DNA from: Alphaproteobacteria bacterium
Lineage (GTDB): Bacteria > Pseudomonadota > Alphaproteobacteria > RF32 > CAG-239
Assembly: GCA_015062305.1 (NCBI GenBank)
Contig: SUUX01000006.1
Span: 8,116 to 72,115, forward strand
Direction of reading: 5' to 3'
Length of the DNA stretch: 64,000 nucleotides
In this document: in pieces, positions 28,585 through 63,296 of the stretch
Position numbering within the stretch: position 1 is the stretch's first letter
How the letters are laid out: each line of letters starts with the position of its first letter
Translations under genes and position numbers: made by a program
The notes under the pieces: generated by a model
The model's database searches: none
Told to the model about the DNA's origin: nothing
The model's input: the letters and a program-made list of their open reading frames with translations, nothing else

Positions 28585-29514
28585 ATGTTTTTCAATAAAT
28601 TTTCATCTTCTCCAACTCAAACATCATCTCCTCAGAAAATTCATTTTTTAGGAATCTCTGCACAATCCCTATATTTGGCCTCCATCTTACAAAACAAAGG
28701 CCACAACATTAGCATCATCTGTACTCCTCCAGAGGCAGACGAACTCCATGCGACAGATATTATCCTAAAAGATAAAAGCCATCTTCAAAATCAGAGATAC
28801 AAATTCAACTATATTTTTGAACAAACGTCCCAGCCCGATATTCTTTTCATTGCTTCTGACATACCTTTTCTCAGAAAAGACCTGCTATTGGCATCTCCTA
28901 GACAACTACACAATACGAAAACTATCAATTTAACACCCACCGCCCCCTCAACTTTCACATCCGAGCTACTTAATATTCCAACCACAAATGCCTATCTTCA
29001 TGGCTGGCTCCAAAAAGATAAAAACATCATCATTCAATCAAGCAACAATTACAAACTTATCATCAGCACACCCAAAAACTCACCCGTTCACACCACCCTT
29101 TCATCACTTTTCGAGAATTCTCTTGTTGAATGCTGCACCAATGAAAACGATACAGAAAATTTATGGAAATGGCTAATTCCACAAGCAATCAGCATTCTAT
29201 TAGAAACAAATGGCGTAAAAAACATATATTCATACAGCAAAACCGAGAATGGACGCAAAACAATAGATTCTCTTTTAAAAGAGCTTTCTGCAATAGCCTC
29301 TTCCAGAGAGGTTAGTCTCAACCATAGTTCTATTTTAACACAACTTCATAGCCAACCTGAAAACAACGGATTTTTAACAAAGAACACTCCCAGAAACATC
29401 TTATCTCTCCACCTTCAGTGCCTAAGCCAACTTCTTTTTCAAGGTATAAGCCCCAACAACCCCAACTATCCGGTATTGCATCAAATGATTAACTCTGCTC
29501 TTAACAAATATTAG
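28585..29514 (+). CDS. Divergent 2-dehydropantoate 2-reductase (PanE/ApbA) family protein with a degenerate NAD(P)-binding motif
   Basis: NLWKWLIPQAISILLETNG resembles the KPR 'KlxxNaxxN' block. SKTENGRKTIDSLL resembles the 'SMxxDxxxGRxTEID' block. The GxGxxG is replaced by FLGISAQS. Confidence 0.4.
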   Translation: MFFNKFSSSPTQTSSPQKIHFLGISAQSLYLASILQNKGHNISIICTPPEADELHATDIILKDKSHLQNQRYKFNYIFEQTSQPDILFIASDIPFLRKDLLLASPRQLHNTKTINLTPTAPSTFTSELLNIPTTNAYLHGWLQKDKNIIIQSSNNYKLIISTPKNSPVHTTLSSLFENSLVECCTNENDTENLWKWLIPQAISILLETNGVKNIYSYSKTENGRKTIDSLLKELSAIASSREVSLNHSSILTQLHSQPENNGFLTKNTPRNILSLHLQCLSQLLFQGISPNNPNYPVLHQMINSALNKY

Positions 29515-29594
29515 CATAATCACACAAATCACTTGAAGAAAAAAGCTTCCAATATTATAATCCATGAAAAAGAATGCACCTCAAGAGGTAGAAT

Positions 29595-30653
29595 ATGGAT
29601 TTACGTTATTATATTTCTATTTTCGGAGCTATCATCGCTTTAATCTTGTCATTAGGATTACTGGGATATTCGAATTTACGCAAAAAACAACATCCCGCCA
29701 TTTTTATAATCACCCTAAGCCTCTTAGCCTCTCTCATATATTGCTTCTTTTTTTGGGATTCACTGGATTTCATAAATAACACCTCACCATGGACACTTAT
29801 CAGTATCTTTATAGGTATAATTCCAATAATTGTTAGTCATTTGCTTAGGTTAAAAACATTTTGGCACTATTTTTTCACCATAATTCCCATTGGCTTTATA
29901 ATTTTTTTCTCTAACATCCCAACAGATATCATCCCATCTCTTCCTGCATGGGGAAACCACATCATATGCTTTTTAATATGGGCTTACATATCCCTAACTT
30001 TTCACATTATTGCACCCAAAACAACTCTAGCCTCAACAGAAACCGCCTCAACAGGCTTAGGCATATATATATTATCCCTCTTAAAAGCCATTCCTTTTAG
30101 CTTTGGCTTTATTGCTCTTATTTTTAGCGTTTCTAGCCTAGCTCTTATCATACACAACAAAAAAGCCTCAAAAATAAGCATTCCTAAAGTCGATGCCGAT
30201 TGTTTAGGTTTTATTTTAGGTGGACTTTTCTATTTATGTGCAACAGAAAACGCTTTTAGCCCTGTTCTTATTTTTATGATGCTATTTATTTGTGAAACAG
30301 GATTAGCTTTGATACTAAAACTGTCTTTTCTACCTCAATATAAAGACCTTCATAACAACACAGCCTGCTCAAAGGCAGAGCAAAAAGGCCTCTTGCCTCC
30401 AATAATAAACAACCTTTTTGCTCGCATAAACATTCTTCTTGTTCTAATGGGATGCTTTCAAGTATACGCCCCCAATCAACATTCCATTCTTCTTATCTGC
30501 TTTGCAATCACATGCTGGCAGATGTATCGCCTTATAAATTGGAATTCGTTGACCTCAAACATCAAAGAAACCAATCTTATGGTTCAGCAAGCACTCAAAA
30601 AAAATATTAACAGGCTAAAAAACAACATCAACAACAAAAACAAGGCTGACTAA
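29595..30653 (+). CDS. Polytopic membrane protein, hypothetical (352 aa)
   Basis: About 9-10 TM. No diagnostic motif recognised. Confidence 0.5.
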   Translation: MDLRYYISIFGAIIALILSLGLLGYSNLRKKQHPAIFIITLSLLASLIYCFFFWDSLDFINNTSPWTLISIFIGIIPIIVSHLLRLKTFWHYFFTIIPIGFIIFFSNIPTDIIPSLPAWGNHIICFLIWAYISLTFHIIAPKTTLASTETASTGLGIYILSLLKAIPFSFGFIALIFSVSSLALIIHNKKASKISIPKVDADCLGFILGGLFYLCATENAFSPVLIFMMLFICETGLALILKLSFLPQYKDLHNNTACSKAEQKGLLPPIINNLFARINILLVLMGCFQVYAPNQHSILLICFAITCWQMYRLINWNSLTSNIKETNLMVQQALKKNINRLKNNINNKNKAD

Positions 30654-32020
30654 TGAAACTACTAAACTACTTAAAAAACATATTTCTTCAGCCTCGGACA
30701 ACATCTCCCGAAGAATTAACTCCTGAAGAAGCCTTACAAATAAACTTCAAAGTTGTTGTTGTTGAGTTTGCCGATAATGTAGAAGGCAATTGCGGAGAAA
30801 TAATCACAGCAAAACTACAGTCCTGTGAAGGTCTTTCTGTATCATATTTCAACCAACCTTTTGACAAAAGCTTCTTAAATTTAGAAAGCAGAACTCTTTT
30901 TGACTTAATTGATAAAGGTCAAACAATTTTAGATCGCACCGGCGCAGATGTTCTAGTATGGGGATGCCGAGAAGAAAATAAAATAAGACTAAACTTTCAA
31001 AATCCCCTTCAATATGAAACCGACGGAGATTGCTTCATATCGTTACTTGACAGTCTCTATTTACCAGCAGATATTTTCAAGAATTATGGAGCTTCTTTTC
31101 CAGCTCCTCTCACAAATTTATTATATGGAGCCATCATAAGTGCTCTTAATTTAGAAAACAAAACTCAAAAAATTCAAAAAAAATATTTACTCAAAAAAAT
31201 TATTGCTCGATTATCTGCAGATAATTCAGCAAAAAATCTTTCCGTAGATTATATTCCTTTTGTCATGAATTTTCTTAGTATCATCTATCTAAGTTACTGC
31301 GCCAAATCCAACGAAGACAAAGATTTTAAGATTGTACACAACCTGCTAGATACAGCCCTAAAACACCAAGACCTTATACAAAACCCCATTCATTTAGGTT
31401 GCATATATTACCACCTTGGTCAGTTATATGATGCCACAGCAGAACATTTAACCAAAAGGCCAACAAGCTCATATCGCAACTCCATAAACAGCTACCGCCT
31501 TGCTCAAAAATATCTCGGCAAATATACATATCCTTACGATTATGGATTAATTTCTTTCAAGCTCTCCAACCTTTTCTATAACTATTGGAAACAAAAAGAA
31601 GACCTCTCATCTCTACGCGATTCCGTATTTTATATGAGAGAAGCAGAAAAAATATTCACCTACGCTCTCTTTCCAGAATTTTGGGCTCAGATAGAAGGAA
31701 GGTTAGGATACCTTTTATCCCTCCTCAGCAACATCACCGACAATAATGAAATTGCAGAACTATCCATTGCTGCATACAAAAACCAACAAAAAATCATCAC
31801 CGAAAAGAGAGACCCCCTCCTCTGGGCTAGAATTCAAGAAAAAATTGGAGAAACCTATTTTCGTTTAGGAAAAAAAGAATCAGACAAAGATTCTCTTGAA
31901 GAAGCCTTAGAATATTTTCATGATGCCTTGTATATCTTCGAAAATATGAATCTTGAAAATGACAGCCAAAGGATATCTTCTTCAATATCAAAAACCAATA
32001 ATGTTATTAGTTATCAATAA
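30653..32020 (+). CDS. Hypothetical protein (455 aa), helical/TPR-like C-terminal half
   Basis: ATGA start-stop overlap with the upstream gene. No signal peptide. Confidence 0.5.
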   Translation: MKLLNYLKNIFLQPRTTSPEELTPEEALQINFKVVVVEFADNVEGNCGEIITAKLQSCEGLSVSYFNQPFDKSFLNLESRTLFDLIDKGQTILDRTGADVLVWGCREENKIRLNFQNPLQYETDGDCFISLLDSLYLPADIFKNYGASFPAPLTNLLYGAIISALNLENKTQKIQKKYLLKKIIARLSADNSAKNLSVDYIPFVMNFLSIIYLSYCAKSNEDKDFKIVHNLLDTALKHQDLIQNPIHLGCIYYHLGQLYDATAEHLTKRPTSSYRNSINSYRLAQKYLGKYTYPYDYGLISFKLSNLFYNYWKQKEDLSSLRDSVFYMREAEKIFTYALFPEFWAQIEGRLGYLLSLLSNITDNNEIAELSIAAYKNQQKIITEKRDPLLWARIQEKIGETYFRLGKKESDKDSLEEALEYFHDALYIFENMNLENDSQRISSSISKTNNVISYQ

Positions 32021-39281: not shown

Positions 39282-39995
39282 CTATTTCACTCCCAAAGCT
39301 TCTTTTTGTTTTGTGATTAACTCTTTAATCCCTTGTTTACCCAGAGACAGCATCTGATAAAATTGTTCTTCATCAAAAGGCTCCCCTTCAGCCGTTCCCT
39401 GTATTTCCACCAATTTTCCACTTTCCGTCATCACAAAATTCATGTCCACTTGCGAATTTGAGTCCTCCTCATAATCCACATCCAAAATAGCCTCACCATT
39501 ATAAATATCACAAGACACAGCAGCCACAAATTCTCTGATTGGATTCTCTTTAAGTTTTTTTTGCTTCATCAACATCTGTACTGCCAAATACAAAGCAACA
39601 AAACCTCCTGTAATAGAGGCCACTCTTGTTCCTCCGTCTGCCTGAATCACATCACAATCTATGCATATTGAAAAATCCTTCATTTTTTCTAAATCCACCA
39701 CCGAACGCAAAGAGCGGCCCACCAGTCTCTGTATCTCTTGTGTTCGCCCCGAAGGTTTTTTCGATTCTCTGGGAATTCTCACCTGAGCAGACCTAGGCAA
39801 CATTGCATATTCTGCAGTAACCCATCCTTTGTTTTGACCTTTCAACCAAGCAGGCAATTTATCTTCCACACTTGCAGTACAAATCACATGGGTATTTCCA
39901 TATTTTACCAAACAAGACCCTTCTGCATAAGGGTTAAAATTTGGAATTAACTCTATATCTCTCAAACAATTATTGGCTCGATTACAGTGACGCAT
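39282..39995 (-). CDS. rph: Ribonuclease PH
   Basis: 237 aa. [31 protein letters not shown]... Typical rph-rdgB pair. Confidence 0.95.
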
Positions 39996-40059
39996 TTTTC
40001 AAATCTCAAAAAGTTAAAACTACCAAGTAGCATAAGCTGATTAAGACATTATATCAACA

Positions 40060-40096
40060 AAAAAAGCTTTGTTTTTTATCAAAACAAAGCTTCTTT
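40060..40096. terminator. Bidirectional rho-independent terminator downstream of grpE
   Basis: AAGCTTTGTTTT ttatc AAAACAAAGCTT with flanking A-runs and T-runs. Confidence 0.6.
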
Positions 40097-40120
40097 ATCT
40101 TCACGAACCTACCAACCAAG

Positions 40121-40690
40121 TTATTTTGTAACAACAACCATAGCTTCTCTAAGGATTCTACCATTTATCATATAACCTGTTTGCAATTCTGCAATAATTG
40201 TCCCCGCTGGTTTAGTCGCATCTTCCACCTCTTGAATCACCTGATGAAAATTAGGATCAAATACCTGCCCCATAATCTCCATTTTAGATATTCCAAATTT
40301 AGCAAACACTTTCATCAATTCTGCCTCTGTCAGTTCCACTCCTTTCTTCAAGGCGTCACAACTGTCATTACCTGCTTCGTTGTCCACAGCCTCAATTGCT
40401 CTATGCAAATTATCTGCAACAGACAACAAATTTTTAGCAAAATCAGCAATCGCATATTTATTATTTTTTTCAATCTCTTGTGCACATCTTTTTTTCACAT
40501 TTTCTGCATCTGCAAATGCTCGCAAAAAATCCTCTTTCAGTTTCTGATTTTCCAAGCGCAAAAGCTCCAACTCATCGTCATCTTTCTGCACCTCTTCCTG
40601 CAGATTCTCTTTCACAATTTCCTCTGTTGAATTATCCAAAACATCTTCGTTTTCTATTTCATTTTGCTGTTTTTTGTTTTTATTCATCAT
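40121..40690 (-). CDS. grpE: Nucleotide exchange factor GrpE
   Basis: LKEDFLRAFADAENVKKR...IADFAKNLLSVADNL. Start set to MMNKNKK (40690); the longer N-terminal extension in the track covers a promoter-like region. Confidence 0.85.
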   Translation of the reverse strand: MMNKNKKQQNEIENEDVLDNSTEEIVKENLQEEVQKDDDELELLRLENQKLKEDFLRAFADAENVKKRCAQEIEKNNKYAIADFAKNLLSVADNLHRAIEAVDNEAGNDSCDALKKGVELTEAELMKVFAKFGISKMEIMGQVFDPNFHQVIQEVEDATKPAGTIIAELQTGYMINGRILREAMVVVTK

Positions 40691-40750
40691 CTTTCTCTTC
40701 AAAAATTGTTTTCTAATGTGCATATCTATAAGGAATTTAGTGACTAATGC

Positions 40751-40780
40751 TTGACAAGTCAAGAGCTATAGTCTTTTAAT
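40751..40780 (+). promoter_or_regulatory. Candidate promoter for the glycosyltransferase gene, within a palindromic TTGACAAGTCAA element
   Basis: TTGACA-N18-TTTAAT, 54 nt upstream of the ATG at 40834. Lies in the divergent grpE/GT region. Confidence 0.3.
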
Positions 40781-40833
40781 AAAGACATAAGCCAAAAGAT
40801 TTAATTATTTTTTTCGTTCTTGAAAGATTTGAT

Positions 40834-42870
40834 ATGAAAACTAACGACCTGTCTTCGGACATCGCACCGGCAAAACTATTGCCTAAAGATTTTAACAAAA
40901 AAAAGTTCAACATTTCTTATGCTGTAACCACAGACCCATATCTTCAAGAAATTCAAAATCTTTCCAGATCACAATGCATGGGCAAAAAAGTTTGGCAACC
41001 AATCTCTCAAATAAAAGGCTGGATGGTCTCTGCTGAAACCGCCACTTTCATGAAATGGGGTGGCTTAGGCATGATAGCTACCGAATTACCAGAAGCCTTC
41101 AACAAATGTTTTGCTGATAAAGGAGAAAAACTCACTGTTGTGACCCCTATCTATATTGGCAACACCGGCAAAAAAAAGGCCGAGATTAAAGACAACGTCT
41201 ATTTGGGAGCAGAACACAAAAGCGTCAATCTAACCAAGATCAAGACCATAGATATCCCTTTTGTTGGAGACAAGCAGGCTCTAGTCAAACACAAAGTAGA
41301 TGTCTACACTGGCAGTTTTAATGATACCGACTACATATTCCTCAGCAGCGACCGTTTTTTCAATATAGACCCTCATCCGGAAAACCCCACTGCTCAAGAT
41401 GGTTGCTATATCATGAACAAGCACGGCATCAACGAGGTTGAGCGCTTTGCTTTTTTCTCCAAAGCCGTATATGTTCTCATAAAAACCATTTTTGAAGACA
41501 AAATTCCCGAGCTTTCAGCTCCCAACATTATTATTGCCAACGACTGGCACAGCGGAGCTCTTTCTGGACTACTCAAATATCTTACTGTTGCTCAAACTCG
41601 CAGCAAAGAGATGTCATCAGAGCTAGCCCGCAAGCTAAAAACATTGCCTGTTGTCCACATTGCGCACCATCTAGGTTACCAGGGTTGGGACTATGACAAC
41701 ACAGCCAAAATACTCAACTCTTTGTATGGACACAATTCAACTTTGGTTCTCAAAAACGCCAAATCCATCAAAAACAGCAACCCCCGTGCCACCAACACTC
41801 TAATTGTTCACGATTGCTACAACCAATCTTCTTGCAATTTTCATTTGGCAGATAGGGTTGTTACTGTTTCTCAAAATTATCTGGAAGAAGTATCCAAAGA
41901 ACTGGAATTTGGCCTAGATTTCAGAGACATCTTAAAAATCCGCAAAGACCATCGTAATTTCTTTGGCATCGTAAATGGTTATGACAAAAAACTCATATCT
42001 CCCAACTCTACCAAAATAGATACCGTAAACAAATATTTTGGCAACACAAATTTCAAAACCTACGATGAAAACAAATTAGAAAACAAACTCCACAACAAGC
42101 AAGAATTCATCAAACTGATTTCAAAAATTGCCACAGATAAAGACTACAAACAAAAAGTCATACCCCTTATTGGCACCTACAAATTTGAAGACATCAGCAA
42201 AGCCATAAAAGATATTTCCAAAACACCTATTGTTTGTGCCACCAGTCGTTTGGTAGAACAAAAGGGCTATGACATTGCCGCTCAGGCCATCTTAAATATA
42301 TCAAAAAGACACCTCTCTACCAAGAGAGAGCATCCTATTTTCATTTTGGGCGGAGCCGGAGACATCAACTATTTTGAGATGCTCACCAAACTAAAAGACA
42401 AAGTAATCGCTCTCAACCCCAAAGTAGCTGAGCGCATTTTTGTTTTCCACGGATACAAAGATGAATTCGCTTATGCCATCCAATTAGCATCAGATTTTTA
42501 CATGATGCCATGCCGTTTTGAGCCTTGTGGCCTCACCCAAATGGAGGCAATGGCCAAAGGAGCTCTTCCTGTTGCCATGTCAACCGGCGGTTTGGTAGAC
42601 ACCATAGAAGACGGCGTAGATGGTTTCAGAACAGATGTTTTCTTTAGCAACAATCGCCGTGTCTACGGTCCAAACCTCATAGCCCAAAGACTCAAAACAA
42701 ACGAAAACGCCTATACAGAAACCTTAGACAAAGCCCTAAACACTTTCTATCAAACTCCAAATCTCATAACTGCAATGCAAAAAAATGCCATGCACAAAGA
42801 TTTTAGCTGGGACGTAGAAAACGGCTCTGTTTACAAATATCACAATTTGTTATCTACAGGTCACTTATAA
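40834..42870 (+). CDS. GT5-family glycosyltransferase (glycogen/starch synthase GlgA-like), atypically long (678 aa)
   Basis: KWGGLGMIATELP (GlgA KTGGLGDV-like). IIANDWHSGA (HAHDWH). SRLVEQKG. RFEPCGLTQMEAMAKGALPVAMSTGGLVDTI (EPCGLTQL...RRTGGLADTV). Confidence 0.75.
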   Translation: MKTNDLSSDIAPAKLLPKDFNKKKFNISYAVTTDPYLQEIQNLSRSQCMGKKVWQPISQIKGWMVSAETATFMKWGGLGMIATELPEAFNKCFADKGEKLTVVTPIYIGNTGKKKAEIKDNVYLGAEHKSVNLTKIKTIDIPFVGDKQALVKHKVDVYTGSFNDTDYIFLSSDRFFNIDPHPENPTAQDGCYIMNKHGINEVERFAFFSKAVYVLIKTIFEDKIPELSAPNIIIANDWHSGALSGLLKYLTVAQTRSKEMSSELARKLKTLPVVHIAHHLGYQGWDYDNTAKILNSLYGHNSTLVLKNAKSIKNSNPRATNTLIVHDCYNQSSCNFHLADRVVTVSQNYLEEVSKELEFGLDFRDILKIRKDHRNFFGIVNGYDKKLISPNSTKIDTVNKYFGNTNFKTYDENKLENKLHNKQEFIKLISKIATDKDYKQKVIPLIGTYKFEDISKAIKDISKTPIVCATSRLVEQKGYDIAAQAILNISKRHLSTKREHPIFILGGAGDINYFEMLTKLKDKVIALNPKVAERIFVFHGYKDEFAYAIQLASDFYMMPCRFEPCGLTQMEAMAKGALPVAMSTGGLVDTIEDGVDGFRTDVFFSNNRRVYGPNLIAQRLKTNENAYTETLDKALNTFYQTPNLITAMQKNAMHKDFSWDVENGSVYKYHNLLSTGHL

Positions 42871-42930
42871 CTATCCTCCCCATCAAGGCGGAGAAGCTCC
42901 TTTCCCCTTGATGGGGAAAGGTTAGGATAG
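42871..42930. terminator. GC-rich nested palindrome between the convergent GT and flagellin genes (bidirectional terminator or REP-like element)
   Basis: Outer CTATCCT/AGGATAG. Inner CCCCATCAAGG/CCTTGATGGGG. A GGAG..CTCC mini-hairpin in the loop. Confidence 0.5.
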
Positions 42931-42950: not shown

Positions 42951-45020
42951 TTAAAACAATTTCAACACACCTTGAGAGGCTTGTGACGCCAGCGATAGGG
43001 CATTAATCGCCAATTGTTGACGAGTTTGCAAAGCCAGCATATTGGCAGATTCTTCATTCATATCCGCCAAAGTGAGCTTATCTGAGCCCTCGGTGAGGAT
43101 GTTTATTAGGTTTTCGGTAAAATCTTGTCTGTTCATCACAATGCTATAATTATTGCCAAGTTCTCCGGAAAATGCACGCAACTGATTTATGGCTGATGTC
43201 AGTTCTCCTATTGAGCGAGAAATATCTTCAACCGTTGCCCATTCTGTTGTGGTTAGCCCGATATTTGCGGCAGAAATATCTTTGCCTACCACATCAATAA
43301 AAGCACTGCCATCTTCATTAAATTTGATTTTCAGAGTTTCATTTTTGAGCAGGTTTACACCCTTGTATTTGGCATCATCAATCAAGTCATCATATTGATT
43401 CAAAATCTTTTGATATTGGCTGATATCATAGCCATCTGCCGGAGCCTCACCACCACCGGCATCACGGCGCAGGCTAAACGCCACCGGATTCTCACTACCT
43501 CCAACCGTGATGGTGCTAAAGGTGCCCCAATCAGAACCATCTCCAGTAAAATCCTTCATTCCGGAGATGTCTGTATAACTTGACCATTCTAAATCCCCTA
43601 AGTTTTTTAAGCTCATAATTTTGGCTGAGGAACCATCTTCAGAAAGGCTGACGATAATACCAACTGCGGTTTTGCTACCTTTATAGGTATCATAATCATT
43701 GGCACTACTATAGGTAAAATCAGAGTACATTATATCGCCGATTTTAGGAGTTGCATTACTGCCATCAGCAGATTTCGCACTACCATCGGTGAAACAATTT
43801 TCTAAAAGCTGGAAACTACGAACTGAATAGGTAGTACCTTTAGTATAGTTGTAACGACCACCGCTATCGGTAACGAGACTCCAAGAATAGCTGTTGCTTC
43901 TCTCAGAAGACGACCAAATGAAAGAAGCTAATTGCTCTGCATCTGCACCCAATTTGCCCAAAGCTGTATTTATGGTGTTGAAATGCTCTGCATCAGCTCC
44001 TGCGGTTCCAAAATATTCACTATCTGATATCTGTGTTGTATCTGTGCCATACAAGCCATCAGCTAATTCGCCAATAGATGGCAAATACCAGGTGCCTTTA
44101 CCAAAATTGGCATCTTTTTCGCTAACAACATAATAGTTATATGCCGCATCTGCCGCCGGAGTATCTGCTTCTGTTTGAGTAACCAACAATTTTGTGTTCA
44201 TCTCACCATCATAAACAACCGCTGCATCGGCATTAAACACCTTGCGTGCCAACTCTCCATTGGTAGAAATATTTTTGGCTGTATCCAATGTTATTTGTGA
44301 GTTCCCTTCAGCAACCACGCCATGCACATAGTCACCGCTGGTTTTGATTGTAATATCGCTCAAAGTAATTTCGGCACCATTGCTAGCCAAAATAGCTCCG
44401 GTTGAACCATAAATAACGCCATTTGTTGAGGTATAATCCAGCTCAATATTTGATACTTCCACACCGGTGCCAGTAAATTTGAGCAAATTGTCGCCACCAC
44501 TATAACTTATTTTATTGCCGTTACCATTTATGATAATATCACTCTCACTAATCTCCAAAGGAGCGTCTAGCACCAAATCATCGGCAAGCACCAATTTGGT
44601 TGCTCCTCCTGCTATCAAGGTTTTTATATCATCGGCACTGGCTCCGGCAGAAATAACCTCATAACCATCATCAATAAAATCTTGCAATTTGTCTTCTTTG
44701 GACAAAGAATTTCCGCTTTCATCAAGAACTTGAGTAGCTACCGCTTTGGCTTGCTCCAAAAAAGAGGTGGCGGTTTCAATAGCTGTGGTAGCGGCTTTGA
44801 TGGTCTGAATTCCTTGCCCCATAGAGTCAAGCAGGGCATCGAGGTCATTGGCTCTGTTGTTCAAAGAACGTGCCGTATAAAAAGAAGAGGGATTATCAAT
44901 GGCAGAATTAACCTTTTTGCCGGTGGATAGACGTTCTTGGGTCAAATCCATCAGACTACTGGTCTTTTGCAAGCTCAGCAAATTGCTGCGCATGCTTGCT
45001 GTCAAACTAATCTTTGCCAT
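42951..45020 (-). CDS. fliC: Flagellin-family protein with a large (about 400 aa) central beta-helix-like domain
   Basis: N-terminal D0/D1 ...QERLSTGKKVNSAIDNPSSFYTARSL... C-terminal ...MLALQTRQQLAINALSLASQASQGVLKLF. Central region has repetitive G/S/T/N-rich beta-strand-like segments. No other flagellar genes in the window. Confidence 0.8.
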   Translation of the reverse strand: MAKISLTASMRSNLLSLQKTSSLMDLTQERLSTGKKVNSAIDNPSSFYTARSLNNRANDLDALLDSMGQGIQTIKAATTAIETATSFLEQAKAVATQVLDESGNSLSKEDKLQDFIDDGYEVISAGASADDIKTLIAGGATKLVLADDLVLDAPLEISESDIIINGNGNKISYSGGDNLLKFTGTGVEVSNIELDYTSTNGVIYGSTGAILASNGAEITLSDITIKTSGDYVHGVVAEGNSQITLDTAKNISTNGELARKVFNADAAVVYDGEMNTKLLVTQTEADTPAADAAYNYYVVSEKDANFGKGTWYLPSIGELADGLYGTDTTQISDSEYFGTAGADAEHFNTINTALGKLGADAEQLASFIWSSSERSNSYSWSLVTDSGGRYNYTKGTTYSVRSFQLLENCFTDGSAKSADGSNATPKIGDIMYSDFTYSSANDYDTYKGSKTAVGIIVSLSEDGSSAKIMSLKNLGDLEWSSYTDISGMKDFTGDGSDWGTFSTITVGGSENPVAFSLRRDAGGGEAPADGYDISQYQKILNQYDDLIDDAKYKGVNLLKNETLKIKFNEDGSAFIDVVGKDISAANIGLTTTEWATVEDISRSIGELTSAINQLRAFSGELGNNYSIVMNRQDFTENLINILTEGSDKLTLADMNEESANMLALQTRQQLAINALSLASQASQGVLKLF

Positions 45021-45160: not shown

Positions 45161-46930
45161 TTATTTACCATACTTGTTACGAGCAACATAATGAGTATGC
45201 AACAAGTGATGGGCTTTTTCCCCACCAGCCTTACCCAAATATTCTTTATACAAGGTTTTTACAGACTCATTATGATGAGACAAACGATTAGCTGCTTTCA
45301 GATCTTCATTCATCAATCCTTTCGCACGCTTTTTACGAATATCATCGGTAATGCCTCTCGGTTTTGGCTGTCCAGGCAACATTACTCTTGGCTGTCCACC
45401 ACCAGAGATACAGCCTCCACGGCAAGCCATCACCTCAACAAAGTGATATGGCATTGGCTCTCCATTTGCCCTTGCTTCTCTAATTCTATTGAGAATAACC
45501 TCAATATTTCCACAACCATGAGCTACAGCTATTCTTATCTTAGTGTCATTGATTACAATTTCGGCCTCTTTAATGCCCTCTAAGCCTTCTATAGCCTTAA
45601 AATTCACTTCACCCAGCTCTTCTCCAGTAATATAGAAATAAGCTGTACGCAAAGCCGCCGTCATAACACCTCCGGTCACACCAAAGATTGTTCCAGCACC
45701 GGAATATTCTCCCAACGGACTATCTGCCTCTTCTTCTGGCAGATTTCTAAAGTCGATTCCGGCTTGTTTTATCATTCTGCAAAGTTCTCTGGTAGTCAAA
45801 GAAACATCAACATCTTGATATCCGGAAGAACTCATATCTTTGCTTCTGGTAATCTCCCATTTTTTTGCAGTACATGGCATTATAGAAACCACCCTTATCT
45901 TAGATGGATTTATTGCCATTTTCTCTGCATAATAGGTCTTAGCCAAGGCCCCAACCATAGATTGAGGAGATTTACATGTTGAGAAATTATCTATCATATC
46001 ATGATGATATTTTTCCAACATATCAACCCAAGCCGGACAACAAGACGTAAACATCGGCAAACTTTCTGGATTCTTGGTAAAACGATTTACAAACTCTGTT
46101 GCCTCTTCTATAATCGTCAAATCAGCACCAAAGTTGGTATCAAACACCTTATTAAACCCTAGTCTGCGCAATGCGGCATAAGTCTTGCCAGTCAAGTTTT
46201 TACCAAACTCATAGCCAAACTCTTCACCTATTGCCACTCTCACAGCCGGAGCAATCTGCACCACAGTAATCAGCTCTGGATCACAAAGCATATCCCATAC
46301 TTTTTGTGTCTCATCATACTCCACAATAGCCCCTGTTGGACAATGCGCTGAACATTGTCCGCATTTAATACAAGGACTATCCGCCAAAGGAATACCTCCG
46401 GCAGCAGTAATTCTTGTTGCCAAACCTCTGTTTAGATAGCTCAAAGCCCAAACATTTTGCTGGTTCTGACAAACCTCCACACAGCGGCCGCAAACCACAC
46501 ATTTAGAAGGATCAAGCACTATAGACTTTGTTGAATCATCTTTTTCCAACTTTTTAGTCAAGCTTGGCAAACGAGAAGAAGAAATCCCAAACGTATTTGA
46601 CAGGTCTTGCAGTTCACAATGCCCGGAACGAATACATGTCAAACACTCATTGGGGTGATTGCTCAAAATCAGCTCCAAAACCGTACGTCTTACTGCAACA
46701 ATTTCAGCATCTCCGGTAATCACTTCCATACCTTCGGCAACAGGTGTACAACAAGAACGCAAAATTCTGCCATTCACTTTCACAATACACATTCCGCAAC
46801 CGGCACTTGGATCAACATCTGGATGCTTACAAAGGGTCGGAATATCTATATGAGCCTTTCTTGCTGCCTCTAAAATGCTTGTTCCAGCCGGAACTTCAAC
46901 CTCAAAATTATCTATTTTTAACTTTACCAT
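45161..46930 (-). CDS. hydA: [FeFe]-hydrogenase catalytic subunit HydA (M3-type: 2Fe-2S + His-ligated 4Fe-4S + 2x[4Fe-4S] + H-cluster)
   Basis: H-cluster motifs L1 FTSCCPAW, L2 MPCTAKKWE, L3 EVMACRGGCISGGGQP. N-terminal NuoG-like CxxC..C. HPNECLTCIRSGHC. CVVCGRCVEVC and CIKCGQCSAHC. Confidence 0.9.
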   Translation of the reverse strand: MVKLKIDNFEVEVPAGTSILEAARKAHIDIPTLCKHPDVDPSAGCGMCIVKVNGRILRSCCTPVAEGMEVITGDAEIVAVRRTVLELILSNHPNECLTCIRSGHCELQDLSNTFGISSSRLPSLTKKLEKDDSTKSIVLDPSKCVVCGRCVEVCQNQQNVWALSYLNRGLATRITAAGGIPLADSPCIKCGQCSAHCPTGAIVEYDETQKVWDMLCDPELITVVQIAPAVRVAIGEEFGYEFGKNLTGKTYAALRRLGFNKVFDTNFGADLTIIEEATEFVNRFTKNPESLPMFTSCCPAWVDMLEKYHHDMIDNFSTCKSPQSMVGALAKTYYAEKMAINPSKIRVVSIMPCTAKKWEITRSKDMSSSGYQDVDVSLTTRELCRMIKQAGIDFRNLPEEEADSPLGEYSGAGTIFGVTGGVMTAALRTAYFYITGEELGEVNFKAIEGLEGIKEAEIVINDTKIRIAVAHGCGNIEVILNRIREARANGEPMPYHFVEVMACRGGCISGGGQPRVMLPGQPKPRGITDDIRKKRAKGLMNEDLKAANRLSHHNESVKTLYKEYLGKAGGEKAHHLLHTHYVARNKYGK

Positions 46931-46932
46931 GG

Positions 46933-48624
46933 TTATTTCTCCTCTCCGGCTGGTTTTGCATCTACAAGTTTATCCAAATATTCTTTTTCAAAGAACTTCA
47001 GCGTCGACAAAACAGGATTCGGTGCTGTTTGACCAAGACCGCATAATGATGCTTTTTGCATAGCCGTTGCGATTCTGCGCAAATCCATCAAATCTTGCTT
47101 TGTTCCTTTTCCTTTGTTTATTTTTTCCAGCAGCAGCAGCATTTGTTTTCCGCCAATTCTGCAAGGAGCGCACTTTCCACAAGATTCATCAACTGTAAAG
47201 TCTAAATAGAAGTTAGCGATATTAACCATGTCAGATGTATCATCCATCACTATCATACCGCCAGAACCCATAATAGAACCAACTTTCTTAAGCTCTTCAT
47301 AGCACACAGGTAAATCCATACTTTCAACTGGAATAACACCCCCAGAAGGGCCACCTGTTTGCACCGCCTTTAGCTTTTTGCCATTGGGCACTCCGCCTCC
47401 AATTTCATTTACAATTTCATTAATTGTTGTTCCCATCGGAACTTCAATCAATCCAGAGTGTTCTACTTGTCCTGTCAAAGCAAAAACTTTTGTTCCCTTA
47501 GAGGTTTCTGTTCCAAAAGAAGCAAACCAATCAGCCCCTTTAAGAATAATTTTTGCAATATTTCCTAAAGTTTCTACATTGTTCACACAAGAAGGCTTAT
47601 TCCACAATCCTTTATCTGTCGGATACGGTGGACGAGGACGAGGAGTTCCTCTTTTTCCCTCAATAGAGTGAATCAAGGCCGTTTCTTCTCCGCAAACAAA
47701 AGCACCGGCACCCAAACGAACTTCAATATTAAAATTAAAGTCTGTGCCCATAATATTGTTTCCTAGCAGTCGATTCTTTTTACAAGCCTTTATCGCCTTT
47801 TCTAGTCTCTCTACCGCCAGCGGATATTCGGCACGCACATAGAACCAACCTTGTGTAGCACCGATTGCATAAGCTGCTATCATCATTCCTTCAATCACAG
47901 AGTGAGGATCACCCTCCAAAATAGAACGATCCATATATGCTCCGGGGTCTCCTTCGTCTCCATTGCATATAATAAATTTCTCATCAACTGTTGGAACTTT
48001 TGCTGCCAATTCCCACTTCATACCGGTAGAGAAGCCTCCACCACCACGGCCTCTCAAACCAGATTTTTTAATTTCAGCCACAACATCGGCAGGCTTCATT
48101 GTCTTCAAAACTTTTTCCAGAGCCAAATACCCGCCTCTTGCAATGTATTCTTGAATATCTTCAGGATCCATATGTCCGGCATCTTTCAACACCACTTTCT
48201 CTTGTTTGGTAAAGAAAGGCAGATCCAAAGATAAAACATGGTCCTGCAAAAACGGAGGCAAAACATATTCTTCACCTGCTTGTTTTTTCAGTGCCGGAAC
48301 GACATGCTCTGTAACAACTAATCTGGCAATCAAAGGTTCAACCCTTTTATACAGAACATCTTTTTGCCCTTTAACTTCCACTCTAATCAATGGCCCTTGA
48401 GCACACAACCCCATACAGCCGGTTGCCACGATTCGAACCTGATCCTCAACACCATGTTCCACAATAGCATTTTTCAAAATATCTATGATATCATCACTTC
48501 CCGAAGACTTACAGCCTGTAGAGTGGCAACAATAAATGCTACAACGATACCTGTCTAACTCTGCATTTTTGTTCTTAGCGATTTCATGAATATCAAATCT
48601 TTTATCCAAATCCATATCAGCCAT
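46933..48624 (-). CDS. hydB: [FeFe]-hydrogenase flavoprotein subunit HydB (NuoF-like, NAD(P)H/FMN/4Fe-4S, N-terminal Trx-like 2Fe-2S)
   Basis: FMN motif GRGGGGFSTGMKW. 4Fe-4S ESCGKCAPCRIG. N-terminal CCHSTGCKSSG...GCMGLCAQGP. 563 aa. Confidence 0.85.
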   Translation of the reverse strand: MADMDLDKRFDIHEIAKNKNAELDRYRCSIYCCHSTGCKSSGSDDIIDILKNAIVEHGVEDQVRIVATGCMGLCAQGPLIRVEVKGQKDVLYKRVEPLIARLVVTEHVVPALKKQAGEEYVLPPFLQDHVLSLDLPFFTKQEKVVLKDAGHMDPEDIQEYIARGGYLALEKVLKTMKPADVVAEIKKSGLRGRGGGGFSTGMKWELAAKVPTVDEKFIICNGDEGDPGAYMDRSILEGDPHSVIEGMMIAAYAIGATQGWFYVRAEYPLAVERLEKAIKACKKNRLLGNNIMGTDFNFNIEVRLGAGAFVCGEETALIHSIEGKRGTPRPRPPYPTDKGLWNKPSCVNNVETLGNIAKIILKGADWFASFGTETSKGTKVFALTGQVEHSGLIEVPMGTTINEIVNEIGGGVPNGKKLKAVQTGGPSGGVIPVESMDLPVCYEELKKVGSIMGSGGMIVMDDTSDMVNIANFYLDFTVDESCGKCAPCRIGGKQMLLLLEKINKGKGTKQDLMDLRRIATAMQKASLCGLGQTAPNPVLSTLKFFEKEYLDKLVDAKPAGEEK

Positions 48625-48629
48625 TATGC

Positions 48630-49109
48630 TTACTCCTCTTCCTCGCTAAGTTTCTTGCGCCATTCATCCAAAATATTACGAACATCACCCGGAGTTACAC
48701 GACCATAGGTTTTGCCGTTCACCACACAAACCGGAGCCAATCCGCAGCATCCGACACATCGAACACTTTGCAAATGGAACATTCTATCCGCAGTACTTTC
48801 GCCTTCTCCGATTCCCAATTCTTTTTTAAACTCTTCTAATACTTTATCATTACCTTTTAAATAACAAGCGGTACCCGTACAAACCGAAATAACCGCTTTT
48901 CCTGGAGCATCTAGCTTAAAAAAGTTATAAAAAGTCAAAACCTCATAGATTCTAGCCAAAGGGATTCCCATTCCTTCTGCAACAGCCATTGCATCTTCCC
49001 ATGGTATAAAACCCTTCACACCTTGAATCTCATGCAAGGCCATAATCAAAGAGCCCCGCTTTTTATGCCACTTGGCTGCAGCTTGTGCCGCCAAAGAATT
49101 ATTTTCCAT
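48630..49109 (-). CDS. hydC: [FeFe]-hydrogenase 2Fe-2S subunit HydC (NuoE-like)
   Basis: VCTGTACYLKG...CVGCCGLAPV thioredoxin-like 2Fe-2S ligands. 159 aa. First gene of the hydCBA order. Confidence 0.8.
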   Translation of the reverse strand: MENNSLAAQAAAKWHKKRGSLIMALHEIQGVKGFIPWEDAMAVAEGMGIPLARIYEVLTFYNFFKLDAPGKAVISVCTGTACYLKGNDKVLEEFKKELGIGEGESTADRMFHLQSVRCVGCCGLAPVCVVNGKTYGRVTPGDVRNILDEWRKKLSEEEE

Positions 49110-55560: not shown

Positions 55561-56115
55561 ATGAAAAACAATAACGATAAAATAATTTTGCTTGTTGGCC
55601 TAATGGGCAGTGGGAAAACCAGCGTAGGCAAACGCCTTTCTAAAAAATTAAACTTGCCTTTCGTTGACGGAGACCGAGAAGTCGAGAAAGCTGCCGGCCT
55701 ATCTCTGATTGACATCCTCAAATGCTTTGGAGAAGAAGAATATCGAGCCGGAGAAGCTCGTGTAATGAAAAGACTTCTTCAAGGCTCCCCTTGTGTTTTA
55801 GCCTCTGGAGGTGGCTCTTTTGTTGCCCCAAAAACCAGAGAATACGCAAAAAAAAACGCCATAACGATATGGCTAAAAGCAGATATAGATGTCATTTATA
55901 ATCGAACTGCCGGACGAGAACATCGCCCATTTATCAAAGGCAACGATAGTGGCCTCAAATCGAAACTGGAAAAATATATAAATGAAGAATATCCTTATTA
56001 CTCCGAAGCGGATATCATCGTTGAAACGAAAGAAGAAAAAGTTGACAATACCGTAAATAGAGTAATTGACGCCATCAACCTCTTTTTGTCAAAACAAAAG
56101 ACTGAGAATCCTTAA
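55561..56115 (+). CDS. aroK: Shikimate kinase
   Basis: P-loop LVGLMGSGKTSVGKRL. 184 aa. Divergent from xerC/D, as in many alphaproteobacteria. Confidence 0.85.
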   Translation: MKNNNDKIILLVGLMGSGKTSVGKRLSKKLNLPFVDGDREVEKAAGLSLIDILKCFGEEEYRAGEARVMKRLLQGSPCVLASGGGSFVAPKTREYAKKNAITIWLKADIDVIYNRTAGREHRPFIKGNDSGLKSKLEKYINEEYPYYSEADIIVETKEEKVDNTVNRVIDAINLFLSKQKTENP

Positions 56116-56725
56116 AATATAGAACCAATTCTTTCATAAAAGGAATTGTTTGTTTTTCCACTATTTGAGGACAGTTATAAAAATCTCTAAAATCACGTCG
56201 CCACTCCAATTGCAAAGAAGTACATCTTTCATGTTTTTTTTGCAGTCGCCCCGTTAAACCTGCACATCCTCTATAATTAGGGTGATTTACCACCATTTTA
56301 ATATTATATTTTCTTGCAAGAACAGAAACCACATGCAAAGCGCCATCATAAAGTTCAGGCTCTTTAATCCCTGTTCCCACCGCCAAATCAAAAGATCTAT
56401 CATTTGTCATTCCATGCACATCTATAAAAAGCTTGTCAAGCAGACCTTTTTCTTCAACAAAATCACTAACCAATACTTTAAAAGGAACAAACTTTGTTCT
56501 TACAATTGTAGAAACCTGACATTCTTCTCCCAAAAAGCGAACCAATTCTCCTGTATACAAATCTTGCATCTTTATTCTTTTACAAGCAAACGACTTTGTA
56601 GAATGTGGAGCGCACAAAACCAAACCAGACCCCTCGTCCCTAAAAGAAAAAACATTTTCTCTTTCTAGAGATGTTTCTGTATCAAAAAATAACGAAGAAT
56701 ATCCTTTTAGTTTATCTAGCATCAA
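56075..56725 (-). CDS. N-formylglutamate amidohydrolase (FGase) family protein, putative
   Basis: LVLCAPHST... and ...FIDVHGM match the FGase HxG..P / D.HS(G)M blocks. 216 aa. 3' end overlaps the aroK 3' end. Confidence 0.4.
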   Translation of the reverse strand: MMLDKLKGYSSLFFDTETSLERENVFSFRDEGSGLVLCAPHSTKSFACKRIKMQDLYTGELVRFLGEECQVSTIVRTKFVPFKVLVSDFVEEKGLLDKLFIDVHGMTNDRSFDLAVGTGIKEPELYDGALHVVSVLARKYNIKMVVNHPNYRGCAGLTGRLQKKHERCTSLQLEWRRDFRDFYNCPQIVEKQTIPFMKELVLYFKDSQSFVLTKRG

Positions 56726-57690
56726 ATCTTCTTCAAAAAATTCACTTTCATAACAGCCAAAGACTGAGCTGTTAAAGCATTTATCGCATCAAAAAACAAG
56801 CTTCTCGTCTTAACTTTTTCTGCCCACTCAATAATTTGTGGATTTTGCATTAAAAGATCGTTTTTAGAAGCCTCCAACAAGGAAACCGCCGCCATCAAGT
56901 GTCCATCATCAACGAGTTTTTTCATCTCCTCCAAAACATCTATTTCTTTTTCTTCGCTTGCCTTTTTTGTATTTTTTATTTGTACAATATCATGAATTTT
57001 AGAATTCAACCGTTCTTTCCAGCTTAAACCTTCTTCGTTTTTATCTGCAGATAAAATTTCATCACAAACATCATTAAATCGATTAGCCAAAAACAACTCC
57101 GATTCTACTCCAATTTTTGCTATCGGCTCCAATACTTTAACTTCCTCCATCATTTTTGGCTTGTCCGCAACAATATTATTAAGCACCTCATATTCATATT
57201 CAAAAGGCTTTCCTTTTTCTGCAGCATCTTTAACCAACATTAAAGAAGTCAACACCAAAGCACTATCATCTGTTATTTCCGACAGCTTATCTAATTTTCT
57301 CTCATTTTTATCAACTCTGGTAACCAAACCCAAAACCGTTGCTACATCTGCCTTCGAACTAATAACATTCAAATTCATTTTTTCAATTGCATCAAAACGC
57401 TCGTACACTTTTGATAAATCTGGCTCTTTTATTTGTGACGCCAACAAAGCCAACTGTTGTTGAAGGCTATGCATTTGAGAATTTAAGGTATTAATTTGTA
57501 CCTGATACATATCTTTTGTTTCTTGCACGGCAAAAAAACTCTTCATCTTCTGTAGCACTTGCGGATTTTTCCAAACGCCATACCCACCAACAACAAGTAT
57601 CACCAACAACAAAGAAAATTTTCCAAACTTTGTTTTTTTCAGCGATTCTTTTGTTTCTTCAGAAACGGATTGCTTTTCTTTTTTAGCCAT
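56722..57690 (-). CDS. Membrane-anchored coiled-coil protein (N-terminal TM, long heptad-rich region); alpha-Mic60/mitofilin-like candidate
   Basis: KFGKFSLLLVILVVGGYGVW TM, followed by a predicted coiled coil. Divergent from tsaD. Confidence 0.5.
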   Translation of the reverse strand: MAKKEKQSVSEETKESLKKTKFGKFSLLLVILVVGGYGVWKNPQVLQKMKSFFAVQETKDMYQVQINTLNSQMHSLQQQLALLASQIKEPDLSKVYERFDAIEKMNLNVISSKADVATVLGLVTRVDKNERKLDKLSEITDDSALVLTSLMLVKDAAEKGKPFEYEYEVLNNIVADKPKMMEEVKVLEPIAKIGVESELFLANRFNDVCDEILSADKNEEGLSWKERLNSKIHDIVQIKNTKKASEEKEIDVLEEMKKLVDDGHLMAAVSLLEASKNDLLMQNPQIIEWAEKVKTRSLFFDAINALTAQSLAVMKVNFLKKI

Positions 57691-62219: not shown

Positions 62220-63296
62220 TTATGATACTCTAAGCCTTTCAAAAATCCGCCTATCAAAAGATCTGACAGCATAATTTTTATTATTTGTAGTACTCCTATC
62301 GGCGTAAAGATGTTCCTTCTCCTGCTCTTCTTTGCTTTTTCCCTGTCTCAAGCCGTTAATAACTTCTCGCATTGTTAGCAGATTTGTAACTTGTTTTTCT
62401 TTTTTAGCCATAACAGCATGTATGCTTCCTGTAACAGGCCGATAAGTTGCCATAACCCCTTCAACTGCAGCTCCAAACTCTTCTTCGTAATACAAATTCT
62501 GCAAATAATTATTTGTCGTTGGAGATTGTTCTATAGCGGCCATTCTTGCGGCCTCCATAGCGGCCTTTTGAGCAGCTTCTTCCATTGCTTTTTCTCTTCT
62601 TTCCTGCTCATCAGATTTATTTTTTGTTTGTTCTGTTCTATCTCTCAACCTTCTTAGTTCTGACAACTTAAACTGCAAAAAGCTTAACTTATTCTGAGCC
62701 ATTTCTTTATAATATCCGCTACCACCTCTTTCTGCCGCGGCATACAAATCTATCACTAATTTCAATTCTGTTTCTCTATCACCCAAATACCCAATAAACA
62801 AATTTCGAGCAGCAATTTCCCCATCTGTTGTGCCATTTGTATTAATATCTACTTCGATTTTTCTTTGAATTTGAACCCAATCATAATATTCTGCTTTAGG
62901 ATCTTCTCCTGAATACAAATGTTGCAATGTTTCTGCCAAAACATAGCTCAAATCATAAACCGGAACCTCACTATTTCCATAAGTCGGAAGCTTTACAGGC
63001 TCTCCTTTTTTTATTTTTTCAACAAGCGCTTTACTATAGTCCTTAACTTCCTCAGGGTCTTTTCTCCTCATCTTATCTACCATATTTTCCATTCTGGACT
63101 TTTCTTCCAGAGACGCTTTTGCCTGAGGCTCAAAAGATCGATTCCTTTGCTTTTCGTACTCGTTCATCATCAACATCATTTTCTCATAATCACTAATGTC
63201 ATTAGGATTATTAGACATAAAGAATTTATCGTACGTTATATATTGTTCCCTTGTTATCATATCCCGACGTCTCCCGCCAAAATTAAACCTTTTCAA
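62220..63296 (-). CDS. Hypothetical soluble coiled-coil protein (358 aa)
   Basis: Charged, K/E/R-rich. No TM or signal peptide. No motif recognised. Confidence 0.45.
   Translation of the reverse strand: MKRFNFGGRRRDMITREQYITYDKFFMSNNPNDISDYEKMMLMMNEYEKQRNRSFEPQAKASLEEKSRMENMVDKMRRKDPEEVKDYSKALVEKIKKGEPVKLPTYGNSEVPVYDLSYVLAETLQHLYSGEDPKAEYYDWVQIQRKIEVDINTNGTTDGEIAARNLFIGYLGDRETELKLVIDLYAAAERGGSGYYKEMAQNKLSFLQFKLSELRRLRDRTEQTKNKSDEQERREKAMEEAAQKAAMEAARMAAIEQSPTTNNYLQNLYYEEEFGAAVEGVMATYRPVTGSIHAVMAKKEKQVTNLLTMREVINGLRQGKSKEEQEKEHLYADRSTTNNKNYAVRSFDRRIFERLRVS

Follow-up and report, generated by a model that had tools for sequence, protein, structure and literature searches.

Among 48 ORFs of the window, by which we mean the whole 64-kb stretch of DNA analyzed here, Pfam annotation recognizes housekeeping genes only (LolA, LptF/G/D, SurA, KsgA, LeuRS, HslUV, AddAB, RNase PH, RdgB, GrpE, flagellin, hydABC, XerC/D, AroK, TsaD, Nth and FolD). 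Between grpE and the flagellin gene lies a gene for a glycosyltransferase of family GT5, and the features that matter for its interpretation are as follows.

40121..40762, minus strand: grpE (Pfam GrpE), divergent from the GT5 gene
40750..40763, no strand: perfect palindrome CTTGACAAGTCAAG in the grpE/GT5 divergent spacer, from the alignment of RF32 loci
40834..42870, plus strand: CDS of the GT5 glycosyltransferase, ATG start, 678 aa, from the ORF and its Pfam GT5/GT1 domains
40834..41013, plus strand: N-terminal extension, residues 1-60, not in canonical GlgA, from AF2 secondary structure and pLDDT
41053..41067, plus strand: K74-W-G-G-L78, the K-x-G-G-L donor-binding loop (E. coli K15, G17, G18), from the alignment with Enterobacter mori GlgA
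41542..41550, plus strand: D237-W-H239 (E. coli D137-W138-H139), from the alignment
41665..41685, plus strand: H278-H-L-G-Y-Q-G284, the E. coli H161-N-L-A-Y-Q-G motif, from the alignment
42247..42264, plus strand: R472 and K477, the phosphate-binding Arg and Lys (E. coli R300, K305), from the alignment
42520..42540, plus strand: E563-P-C-G-L-T-Q (E. coli E377 motif), from the alignment and the structure-sequence search
42871..42930, no strand: stable stem-loop (MFE) in the 80-bp convergent spacer from GT5 stop to flagellin stop
42951-45020, minus strand: flagellin, 689 aa, convergent with the GT5 gene (Pfam)
45161-49109, minus strand: three-gene FeFe hydrogenase cluster, labelled hydA/hydB/hydC (Pfam)

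The GT5 gene product is related to bacterial glycogen synthase and is intact, though unusually large. Its membership in the glycogen/starch-synthase family, as proposed in a preliminary description of this DNA, is borne out by a match of 93.9 bits to PF08323 (Glyco_transf_5; cutoff 22.7) over residues 63-361 and by the presence of the motifs listed there, K74-W-G-G-L, N-D237-W-H239, E563-P-C-G-L-T-Q and T584-G-G-L. PF00534 (Glycos_transf_1) is matched over residues 454-599 with 47.6 bits (cutoff 26.4), and these GT5/GT1-type domains are the sole Pfam passes, accompanied by a weak sub-threshold GT4 match. The N-terminal GT5 domain and the C-terminal Rossmann domain of GT1 type place the protein in the CAZy GT5/PF08323 superfamily; its GT-B fold superposes better on solved glycogen/starch synthases than on other GT-B families. 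The top sequence matches among solved structures are all glycogen/starch synthases, led by Agrobacterium 1RZU (E 2e-20), followed by E. coli 3D1J/2QZS at ~1e-19; the alignment is good mainly in the C-terminal half. Two observations count against reading the protein as a glycogen synthase. Identity to characterised enzymes is only 22-26% (23-25% to the bacterial GlgA proteins of E. coli, 2QZS, and Agrobacterium tumefaciens, 1RZU), and the cutoff of none of the NCBIfam GlgA models is reached: TIGR02095 scores 215.3 against 328.45, and the GlgA equivalogs score 96-165 bits against cutoffs of 459-870, the best being NF001899 (164.6 against 459). An identity as GlgM, the GT4 alpha-maltose-1-phosphate synthase, was rejected: TIGR02149 glgA_Coryne gives 32 bits against a cutoff of 302, the structural match to GlgM (6TVP) is much weaker, and the N-domain is of the GT5 type, with no GT4 N-domain found.

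We mapped the active site by alignment with Enterobacter mori GlgA, the numbering of which equals that of E. coli plus one. K74, G76, G77, D237, W238, H239, H278 and Y282 correspond to E. coli K15, G17, G18, D137, W138, H139, H161 and Y165, and Q283, N381, R472, K477, Y541, E563, C565 and T568 correspond to Q166, N246, R300, K305, Y355, E377, C379 and T382, with Y541, upstream of the E563 motif, as the counterpart of the base-stacking Y355. Work on E. coli glycogen synthase has assigned these residues to the binding of the phosphates of the donor, of the glucose that is transferred and of the acceptor. Structures of glycogen and starch synthases form the basis for the same residue roles (PMC6086201). 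Ten of the 16 matched active-site residues are invariant over 27 long-clade sequences (see below), including G76, G77, D237, H278, N381, R472, K477 and E563 and excluding K74. The sole change among the sites compared, N162 to H279, is present in both RF32 sequences aligned and speaks against the glycogen-synthase reading. As judged from these correspondences, the predicted active site of the GT5 protein is intact. The whole GlgA core is thus present, and the 201 residues by which the protein (678 aa) exceeds E. coli glycogen synthase (477 aa) are additions to this core; an excess of about 200 aa, made up of an N-terminal extension of ~60 aa and internal insertions, had been correctly noted in the preliminary description.

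The length of ~60 aa for the N-terminal extension follows from the AF2 model, in which beta-strand 1 begins at residue 61; by secondary structure and pLDDT, residues 1-10 are disordered and residues 35-48 form a well-predicted helix. The extension is missing from canonical ~480-aa GlgA and has an occupancy of 0.66 in the long clade. By comparison with 24 canonical ~480-aa GlgA sequences, the remaining surplus consists of ~18 insertions of 4-17 aa each, which are spread over both domains. Because other long forms have residues at nearly all of these positions (occupancy 0.4-1.0), the insertions cannot be put down to chance, lineage-specific loops of this genome, and they do not make up a separate additional domain. 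The preliminary description had allowed for a plain GlgA if the insertions proved to be ordinary lineage-specific loops and a full glg operon lay elsewhere; the half of this that concerns the insertions holds in that they are not unique to this gene but conserved across the whole long-form clade. By alignment, the insertions are characters common to a GT5 subfamily. The insertions of plant and cyanobacterial starch synthases (AtSS4 6GNE, CLg1 GBSS 6GNF, barley SSI 4HLN) are different ones, the GT5 protein lacks the coiled-coil or CBM region that enzymes of the SS3/SS4 type have at the N-terminus, and the sequences give no sign of a specific relationship between the two groups.

Among the matches listed in a search of 5.8 billion proteins is a tight orthologue set of 677-681 aa with 69-79% identity. 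The named members come from MAGs labelled 'Alphaproteobacteria bacterium' or 'Azospirillum sp. 47_25/51_20', which we take to be RF32-type gut Alphaproteobacteria; the exact GT5 protein is encoded on 17 metagenome contigs, and one RF32 orthologue is present on >1000 contigs, the longest of 2.04 Mb. The uniform length and identity of the orthologues over many RF32 MAGs, and the >1000 contigs carrying one of them, indicate a conserved and probably functional gene. The 'reduced genome' invoked in the preliminary description is an overstatement, as relatives carry the GT5 gene on contigs of 1.94-2.04 Mb.

Beyond the orthologues, we searched 1.84 billion cluster representatives exhaustively and obtained ~90 clusters at E <1e-30 which, apart from short fragments of close orthologues, are long forms of 685-1120 aa with 27-41% identity that typically align with the GT5 protein from about residue 40 to 677. 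In the same search, canonical ~480-aa GlgA comes only at E ~1e-25 and is aligned mainly over the C-terminal half. In a neighbor-joining tree, canonical GlgA is apart from the long forms, and the RF32 sequences are nested within the long forms. The GT5 protein thus differs from bacterial GlgA in its added residues, in the His in place of N162, in its separate clade and in scoring below the TIGR02095 and GlgA equivalog cutoffs. The named long forms outside RF32 belong to Candidatus Gastranaerophilales/Gastranaerophilaceae. Among the matches listed, GTDB species genomes with long forms comprise only four Gastranaerophilales MAGs and two RF32-type MAGs. The genome encoding P0125, a 40%-identical long form, is melainabacterial, as its ValRS shares 85% identity with the ValRS from 'Candidatus Melainabacteria bacterium GWF2_37_15'. 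Because all RF32 orthologues fall within one or two 50%-identity clusters and the remaining diversity lies outside RF32, a single transfer from Melainabacteria to an RF32 ancestor is the simplest reading. We infer that the long-form gene probably moved once, in this direction, into the ancestor of RF32-type gut Alphaproteobacteria. In the literature on glycogen and GT5 enzymes of RF32, CAG-239, Gastranaerophilales and Melainabacteria, we found no description of a long-form subfamily and no assayed member.

The Gastranaerophilales/Melainabacteria long forms (e.g. MFI3300777.1, 993 aa, annotated as 'glycogen/starch synthase') align with the GT5 protein over residues ~40 to 677 at 30-41% identity and have the insertions and the pre-catalytic helix in common with it. 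They differ in having Phe for Tyr541 and Asn for His279, and in being mostly 720-1120 aa long, with a longer N-terminal region that contains a predicted membrane anchor and, after it, often a coiled-coil-like stretch. This anchor, a segment of 19 residues that is strongly hydrophobic and precedes the catalytic domain, is predicted in 44 of 75 long-clade representatives, and to our knowledge no N-terminal membrane anchor is known for glycogen synthases. The anchors hint that the ancestral role of the clade may differ from glycogen synthesis. One could therefore imagine that long forms make a non-storage alpha-glucan or glucoside of the envelope, such as a capsular or membrane glucan, or a lipid or some other acceptor to which glucose is added, with the RF32 protein as a soluble derivative of an anchored ancestor. 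For such a purpose, the insertions specific to the clade could give the acceptor cleft another shape; long-form genes are never clustered with glg genes; a melainabacterial locus (L009) has GT2 and GGDEF genes downstream of its long GT5 gene; and one long form, encoded beside two radical-SAM genes, carries a fused SDR domain that is epimerase/dehydratase-like. In the relatives, the long N-terminal regions yielded no carbohydrate-binding modules, only an alanine-zipper match and this one SDR fusion. Opposing an envelope role, all residues with which E. coli glycogen synthase contacts the glucose of the donor and the first glucoses of the acceptor are kept except N162, the GT5 protein of the window has no hydrophobic segment, and no export, flippase or polysaccharide-assembly genes lie beside the GT5 gene in any RF32 locus. 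We regard an envelope product as distinctly improbable and the GT5 protein as most likely still making a storage alpha-glucan.

A storage role raises the matter of the other enzymes of the pathway. As stated in the preliminary description, glycogen-pathway genes are missing nearby: glgB, glgC, glgX and glgP were found in the 64-kb window neither by Pfam on the 48 ORFs nor by tblastn with reference Glg proteins (GlgB, GlgX, GlgC and GlgP of Enterobacter mori, encoded in its glgBXCAP locus, plus the GlgB and GlgX proteins of Asaia). Over ~400 kb, comprising the window and 13 distinct long-GT5 contexts, the same queries gave no tblastn match except a weak one in an RF32 locus (L001), where a 242-aa NTP-transferase matches only the N-terminal nucleotidyltransferase fold of GlgC (37% over 78 aa); the gene tables of three further loci (L094, L095, L096) list no glg genes. 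In total, none of 16 distinct long-GT5 contexts, which come from two lineages only, has glgB, glgC, glgX or glgP within 8-10 kb. This is a further point against the glycogen-synthase reading and a difference from bacterial GlgA, because long-form genes are never clustered with glgB, glgC or glgP. In a control set of canonical glgA loci (n = 46, each 12 kb or longer), 24 have at least one glg neighbor and 22 have none; the solitary position is thus a consistent trait of the long clade, yet common in ordinary glgA too. The only alpha-glucan gene near a long GT5 gene encodes a GH77 4-alpha-glucanotransferase, 2.5 kb upstream in one Gastranaerophilaceae MAG, and constitutes a weak genomic link.

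The lack of a nearby glgC bears on the donor. Some archaeal, chlamydial and glaucophyte GT5 enzymes use UDP-glucose or are promiscuous, and the GT5 protein might carry out the same chemistry with UDP-glucose or several NDP-glucoses, in which case GalU would be enough and no GlgC would be needed. Consistently, tblastn detected no glgC near any long GT5 gene, the sole nearby NTP-transferase resembles GlgC only in its N-terminal fold, the SDR domain fused to one long form is of an NDP-sugar epimerase/dehydratase-like type, and in the melainabacterial long forms the base-stacking position is occupied by Phe, in many cases with Pro two to three residues on. The UDP-Glc-preferring GBSSI of Cyanophora likewise has Phe at this position and Pro two residues later (PMC6086201). 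However, the RF32 proteins have Tyr541, like the ADP-Glc-using E. coli glycogen synthase and AtSS4 (PMC6086201), and Melainabacteria possess a biochemically active ADP-glucose pyrophosphorylase (GlgC), together with one glgA, a GH57 glgB and glgE (bioRxiv 10.1101/2021.06.18.448987). Phe is also found in canonical GlgAs of the same alignment, so that Tyr versus Phe at the base-stacking position is not diagnostic. Taken together, we consider a UDP-glucose or promiscuous donor unlikely; based on Tyr541, which E. coli glycogen synthase also has and which weakly points in this direction, the donor would most probably be ADP-glucose.

The preliminary description was right to list the flagellin gene and the hydrogenase cluster as neighbors, as both lie downstream of the GT5 gene, and it read into this arrangement a metabolism coupled to H2 production or the glycosylation of flagellin or the surface. 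Comparison with other genomes lends neither idea support. Across six RF32 species, the sole constant neighbor of the GT5 gene is the divergently transcribed grpE, which tblastn places at an equivalent position in L001-L007, L015 and L016 and which the gene tables show in L094 and L095. hydABC is near the GT5 gene in four of the six species, on either side and in either orientation. L094, with a 75%-identical orthologue, has the layout of the window, without flagellin. In L095 (72%), the two flanking blocks are the same but the [grpE-GT5] pair between them is inverted, which places hydA next to grpE and rph behind the GT5 gene; such an inversion explains why hydABC occurs on either side and in either orientation. 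In L015, hydC, hydB and hydA follow the GT5 gene on the same strand; in L001 (69%), the hydrogenase is not nearby; L005, which encodes the identical GT5 protein and thus represents the window species, lacks the hydrogenase; and in L018, ShlB, BioD and BioA lie between a hydA-like ORF and the long GT5 gene. With hydABC variable in position and orientation or missing, we rejected a link to the hydrogenase, the arrangement representing inherited synteny and not an operon.

A link to the flagellum was rejected on similar grounds. That the GT5 protein glycosylates flagellin or another surface protein is suggested by its gene being convergent with the gene for the 689-aa flagellin and by the melainabacterial L009, in which a 40%-identical long GT5 gene directly follows flgK-flgL on the same strand. 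These are the only two cases among 16 contexts compared: the flagellin gene adjoins the GT5 gene only in the window species, the same layout in L094 is without flagellin, and none of 14 other long-GT5 contexts (nine by flagellar queries, five by gene tables) has a flagellar neighbor. Moreover, the glucan-binding residues are conserved, and by Pfam the GT5 protein has no Maf, TPR or GT-A domain, that is, no domain typical of flagellin glycosyltransferases, making a function in protein glycosylation hardly credible. Given the varied RF32 arrangements, the adjacency of flagellin and hydrogenase genes reflects local rearrangement and not a functional cluster; the place of the GT5 gene beside them is an accident of gene order.

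The constancy of the grpE-GT5 pair draws attention to the spacer between the two genes. The palindrome CTTGACAAGTCAAG occurs once in the window, its core CAAGTCAAG is identical in all six aligned RF32 loci, and it holds overlapping -35-like hexamers, TTGACA on the plus strand and TTGACT on the minus strand. A promoter scan matches the palindrome on the minus strand, in the direction of grpE. On the plus strand, TTGACA is a perfect -35 hexamer and the scan reported no promoter; the best -10 element, TTTAAT after an 18-nt spacer, is weak and lacks an A at position 2, for which reason a sigma-70 promoter for the GT5 gene is at present only a putative one that we infer. A palindrome with -35-like hexamers on both strands may explain why the grpE-GT5 pair moves as a unit. 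At the other end of the gene, the stem-loop in the convergent spacer has an MFE of -36.6 kcal/mol (z -3.6) on the plus strand and -32.6 kcal/mol (z -2.5) on the minus strand; because no T-run follows, it is not a canonical intrinsic terminator.

Altogether, we consider it likely that the GT5 gene product is a soluble cytoplasmic enzyme, catalytically intact, that synthesizes alpha-1,4-glucan of the glycogen type and belongs to a divergent GT5 subfamily of long forms. In our model, the protein would elongate alpha-1,4-glucan from NDP-glucose in the cytoplasm by the retaining GT-B mechanism of GlgA, and the ~200 extra residues, i.e. the helix-containing N-terminal extension and the ~18 short insertions, are decorations common to the subfamily. 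This subfamily is diverse in Melainabacteria/Gastranaerophilales and would have moved once into an RF32-type ancestor; in RF32 the gene forms a single-gene unit back to back with grpE. Our analysis shows the fold, the conservation of the active site, the membership in the clade, its taxonomic distribution and the gene order, and on these we base our proposals for activity, donor, product and direction of transfer. It is tempting to speculate further that the long clade consists mostly of membrane-tethered melainabacterial alpha-glucan synthases, acting in the synthesis of a membrane or envelope glucan or in granule nucleation, with a soluble RF32 offshoot that works without GlgC/GlgB and is wired to a grpE stress promoter; this more elaborate scenario is, in our view, quite unlikely.

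The GT5 gene product is thus real and conserved, and probably a functional alpha-glucan synthase, of a long-form subfamily common to Melainabacteria and RF32. For annotation, we note that the label 'glycogen/starch synthase' on long forms rests on domain-level evidence only. The distribution of the subfamily points to a gene that was likely transferred between Melainabacteria and RF32 Alphaproteobacteria, two uncultured lineages that live together in the gut. Should the long forms prove to be ordinary glycogen synthases, they would add only a structurally decorated, uncharacterised subfamily to GT5. If instead they use another donor, work without GlgC/GlgB or act at the membrane, they would represent a second bacterial way to alpha-glucan, which would bear on carbon storage in abundant uncultured gut fermenters.

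The flagellin gene that separates the GT5 gene from hydA in the window encodes a protein of 689 aa in which the N- and C-terminal helical regions are conserved while the centre, of approximately 450 aa, has a weak match to Lcl_C. Flagellin occupies this position in the window species only, and the orthologous locus of the RF32 genome with the 75%-identical GT5 protein (L094) is without it. Another contig of the window species (L005) carries a 97.5%-identical flagellin copy, after which different genes follow. The flagellin gene has the appearance of one inserted at a hotspot of rearrangement. The neighbouring hydrogenase cluster encodes HydA (589 aa) with a Fer2_4/NuoG-type N-terminus, the NuoF-like HydB (563 aa) and the NuoE-like HydC (159 aa), an architecture typical of electron-bifurcating hydrogenases; HydA of 'Azospirillum sp. 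51_20' (L015) is 81% identical to that of the window.

42951-45020, - strand: flagellin, between the GT5 gene and hydA
45161-49109, - strand: three-gene FeFe hydrogenase cluster (hydA, hydB, hydC)

Over the whole window, GC content is 33-42% and the + strand shows a consistently and markedly negative GC skew (-0.07 to -0.38); most genes are on the - strand, with the GT5 gene among the + strand minority. Several sizeable ORFs, of 309, 352, 455, 216, 322 and 358 aa, lack a Pfam match at E <= 1e-5.

28585-32020, + strand: sizeable ORFs without Pfam match
56075-57690, - strand: same
62220-63296, - strand: same

Two relatives from the long clade are at these loci.

L009 2158-12355 (GCA_964558005.1, melainabacterial by ValRS): region of the long GT5 protein P0125
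L096 8001-11141 (GCA_024449705.1): P0140, an SDR-GT5 fusion of 1046 aa

The genes flgF-flgG-flgA-flgH-flgI-flgJ-flgN-flgK-flgL are immediately followed, on their own strand, by the P0125 gene (784 aa; 40% identity to the window GT5 protein), with genes for a GGDEF and a GT2 protein a short way downstream of it. In P0140 a long GT5 domain follows an extended-SDR epimerase/dehydratase-like domain (residues ~17-370) that matches no NCBIfam equivalog, and two radical-SAM genes lie immediately upstream of the fusion gene.

A single strongly hydrophobic segment is present in 44 of the 75 long-clade GT5 representatives, including P0127, P0129, P0131, P0133, P0134 and P0163. Wherever its position could be assigned, the segment precedes the catalytic domain, at ~45-170 residues from the N-terminus. 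The sequence around it is often low-complexity and coiled-coil-like, and P0163 has an alanine-zipper match. Judged from sequence, these long forms would be membrane-tethered 'glycogen synthases'.

Relative to the rph-rdgB-addBA and hydCBA-lptFD-surA-ksgA blocks, the grpE-GT5 pair is flipped in orientation in some RF32 species (window 39282-42870 versus L095 and L001). No hrcA adjoins grpE in the window. The divergent spacer contains a palindrome.

40750-40763: perfect palindrome CTTGACAAGTCAAG, grpE/GT5 spacer

Its core, CAAGTCAAG, is identical in six RF32 loci (the window, L001, L015, L016, L094 and L095). The palindrome could represent back-to-back -35 boxes or an operator, and it prompts one to ask if grpE and the glucan synthase gene are under a common stress regulation.
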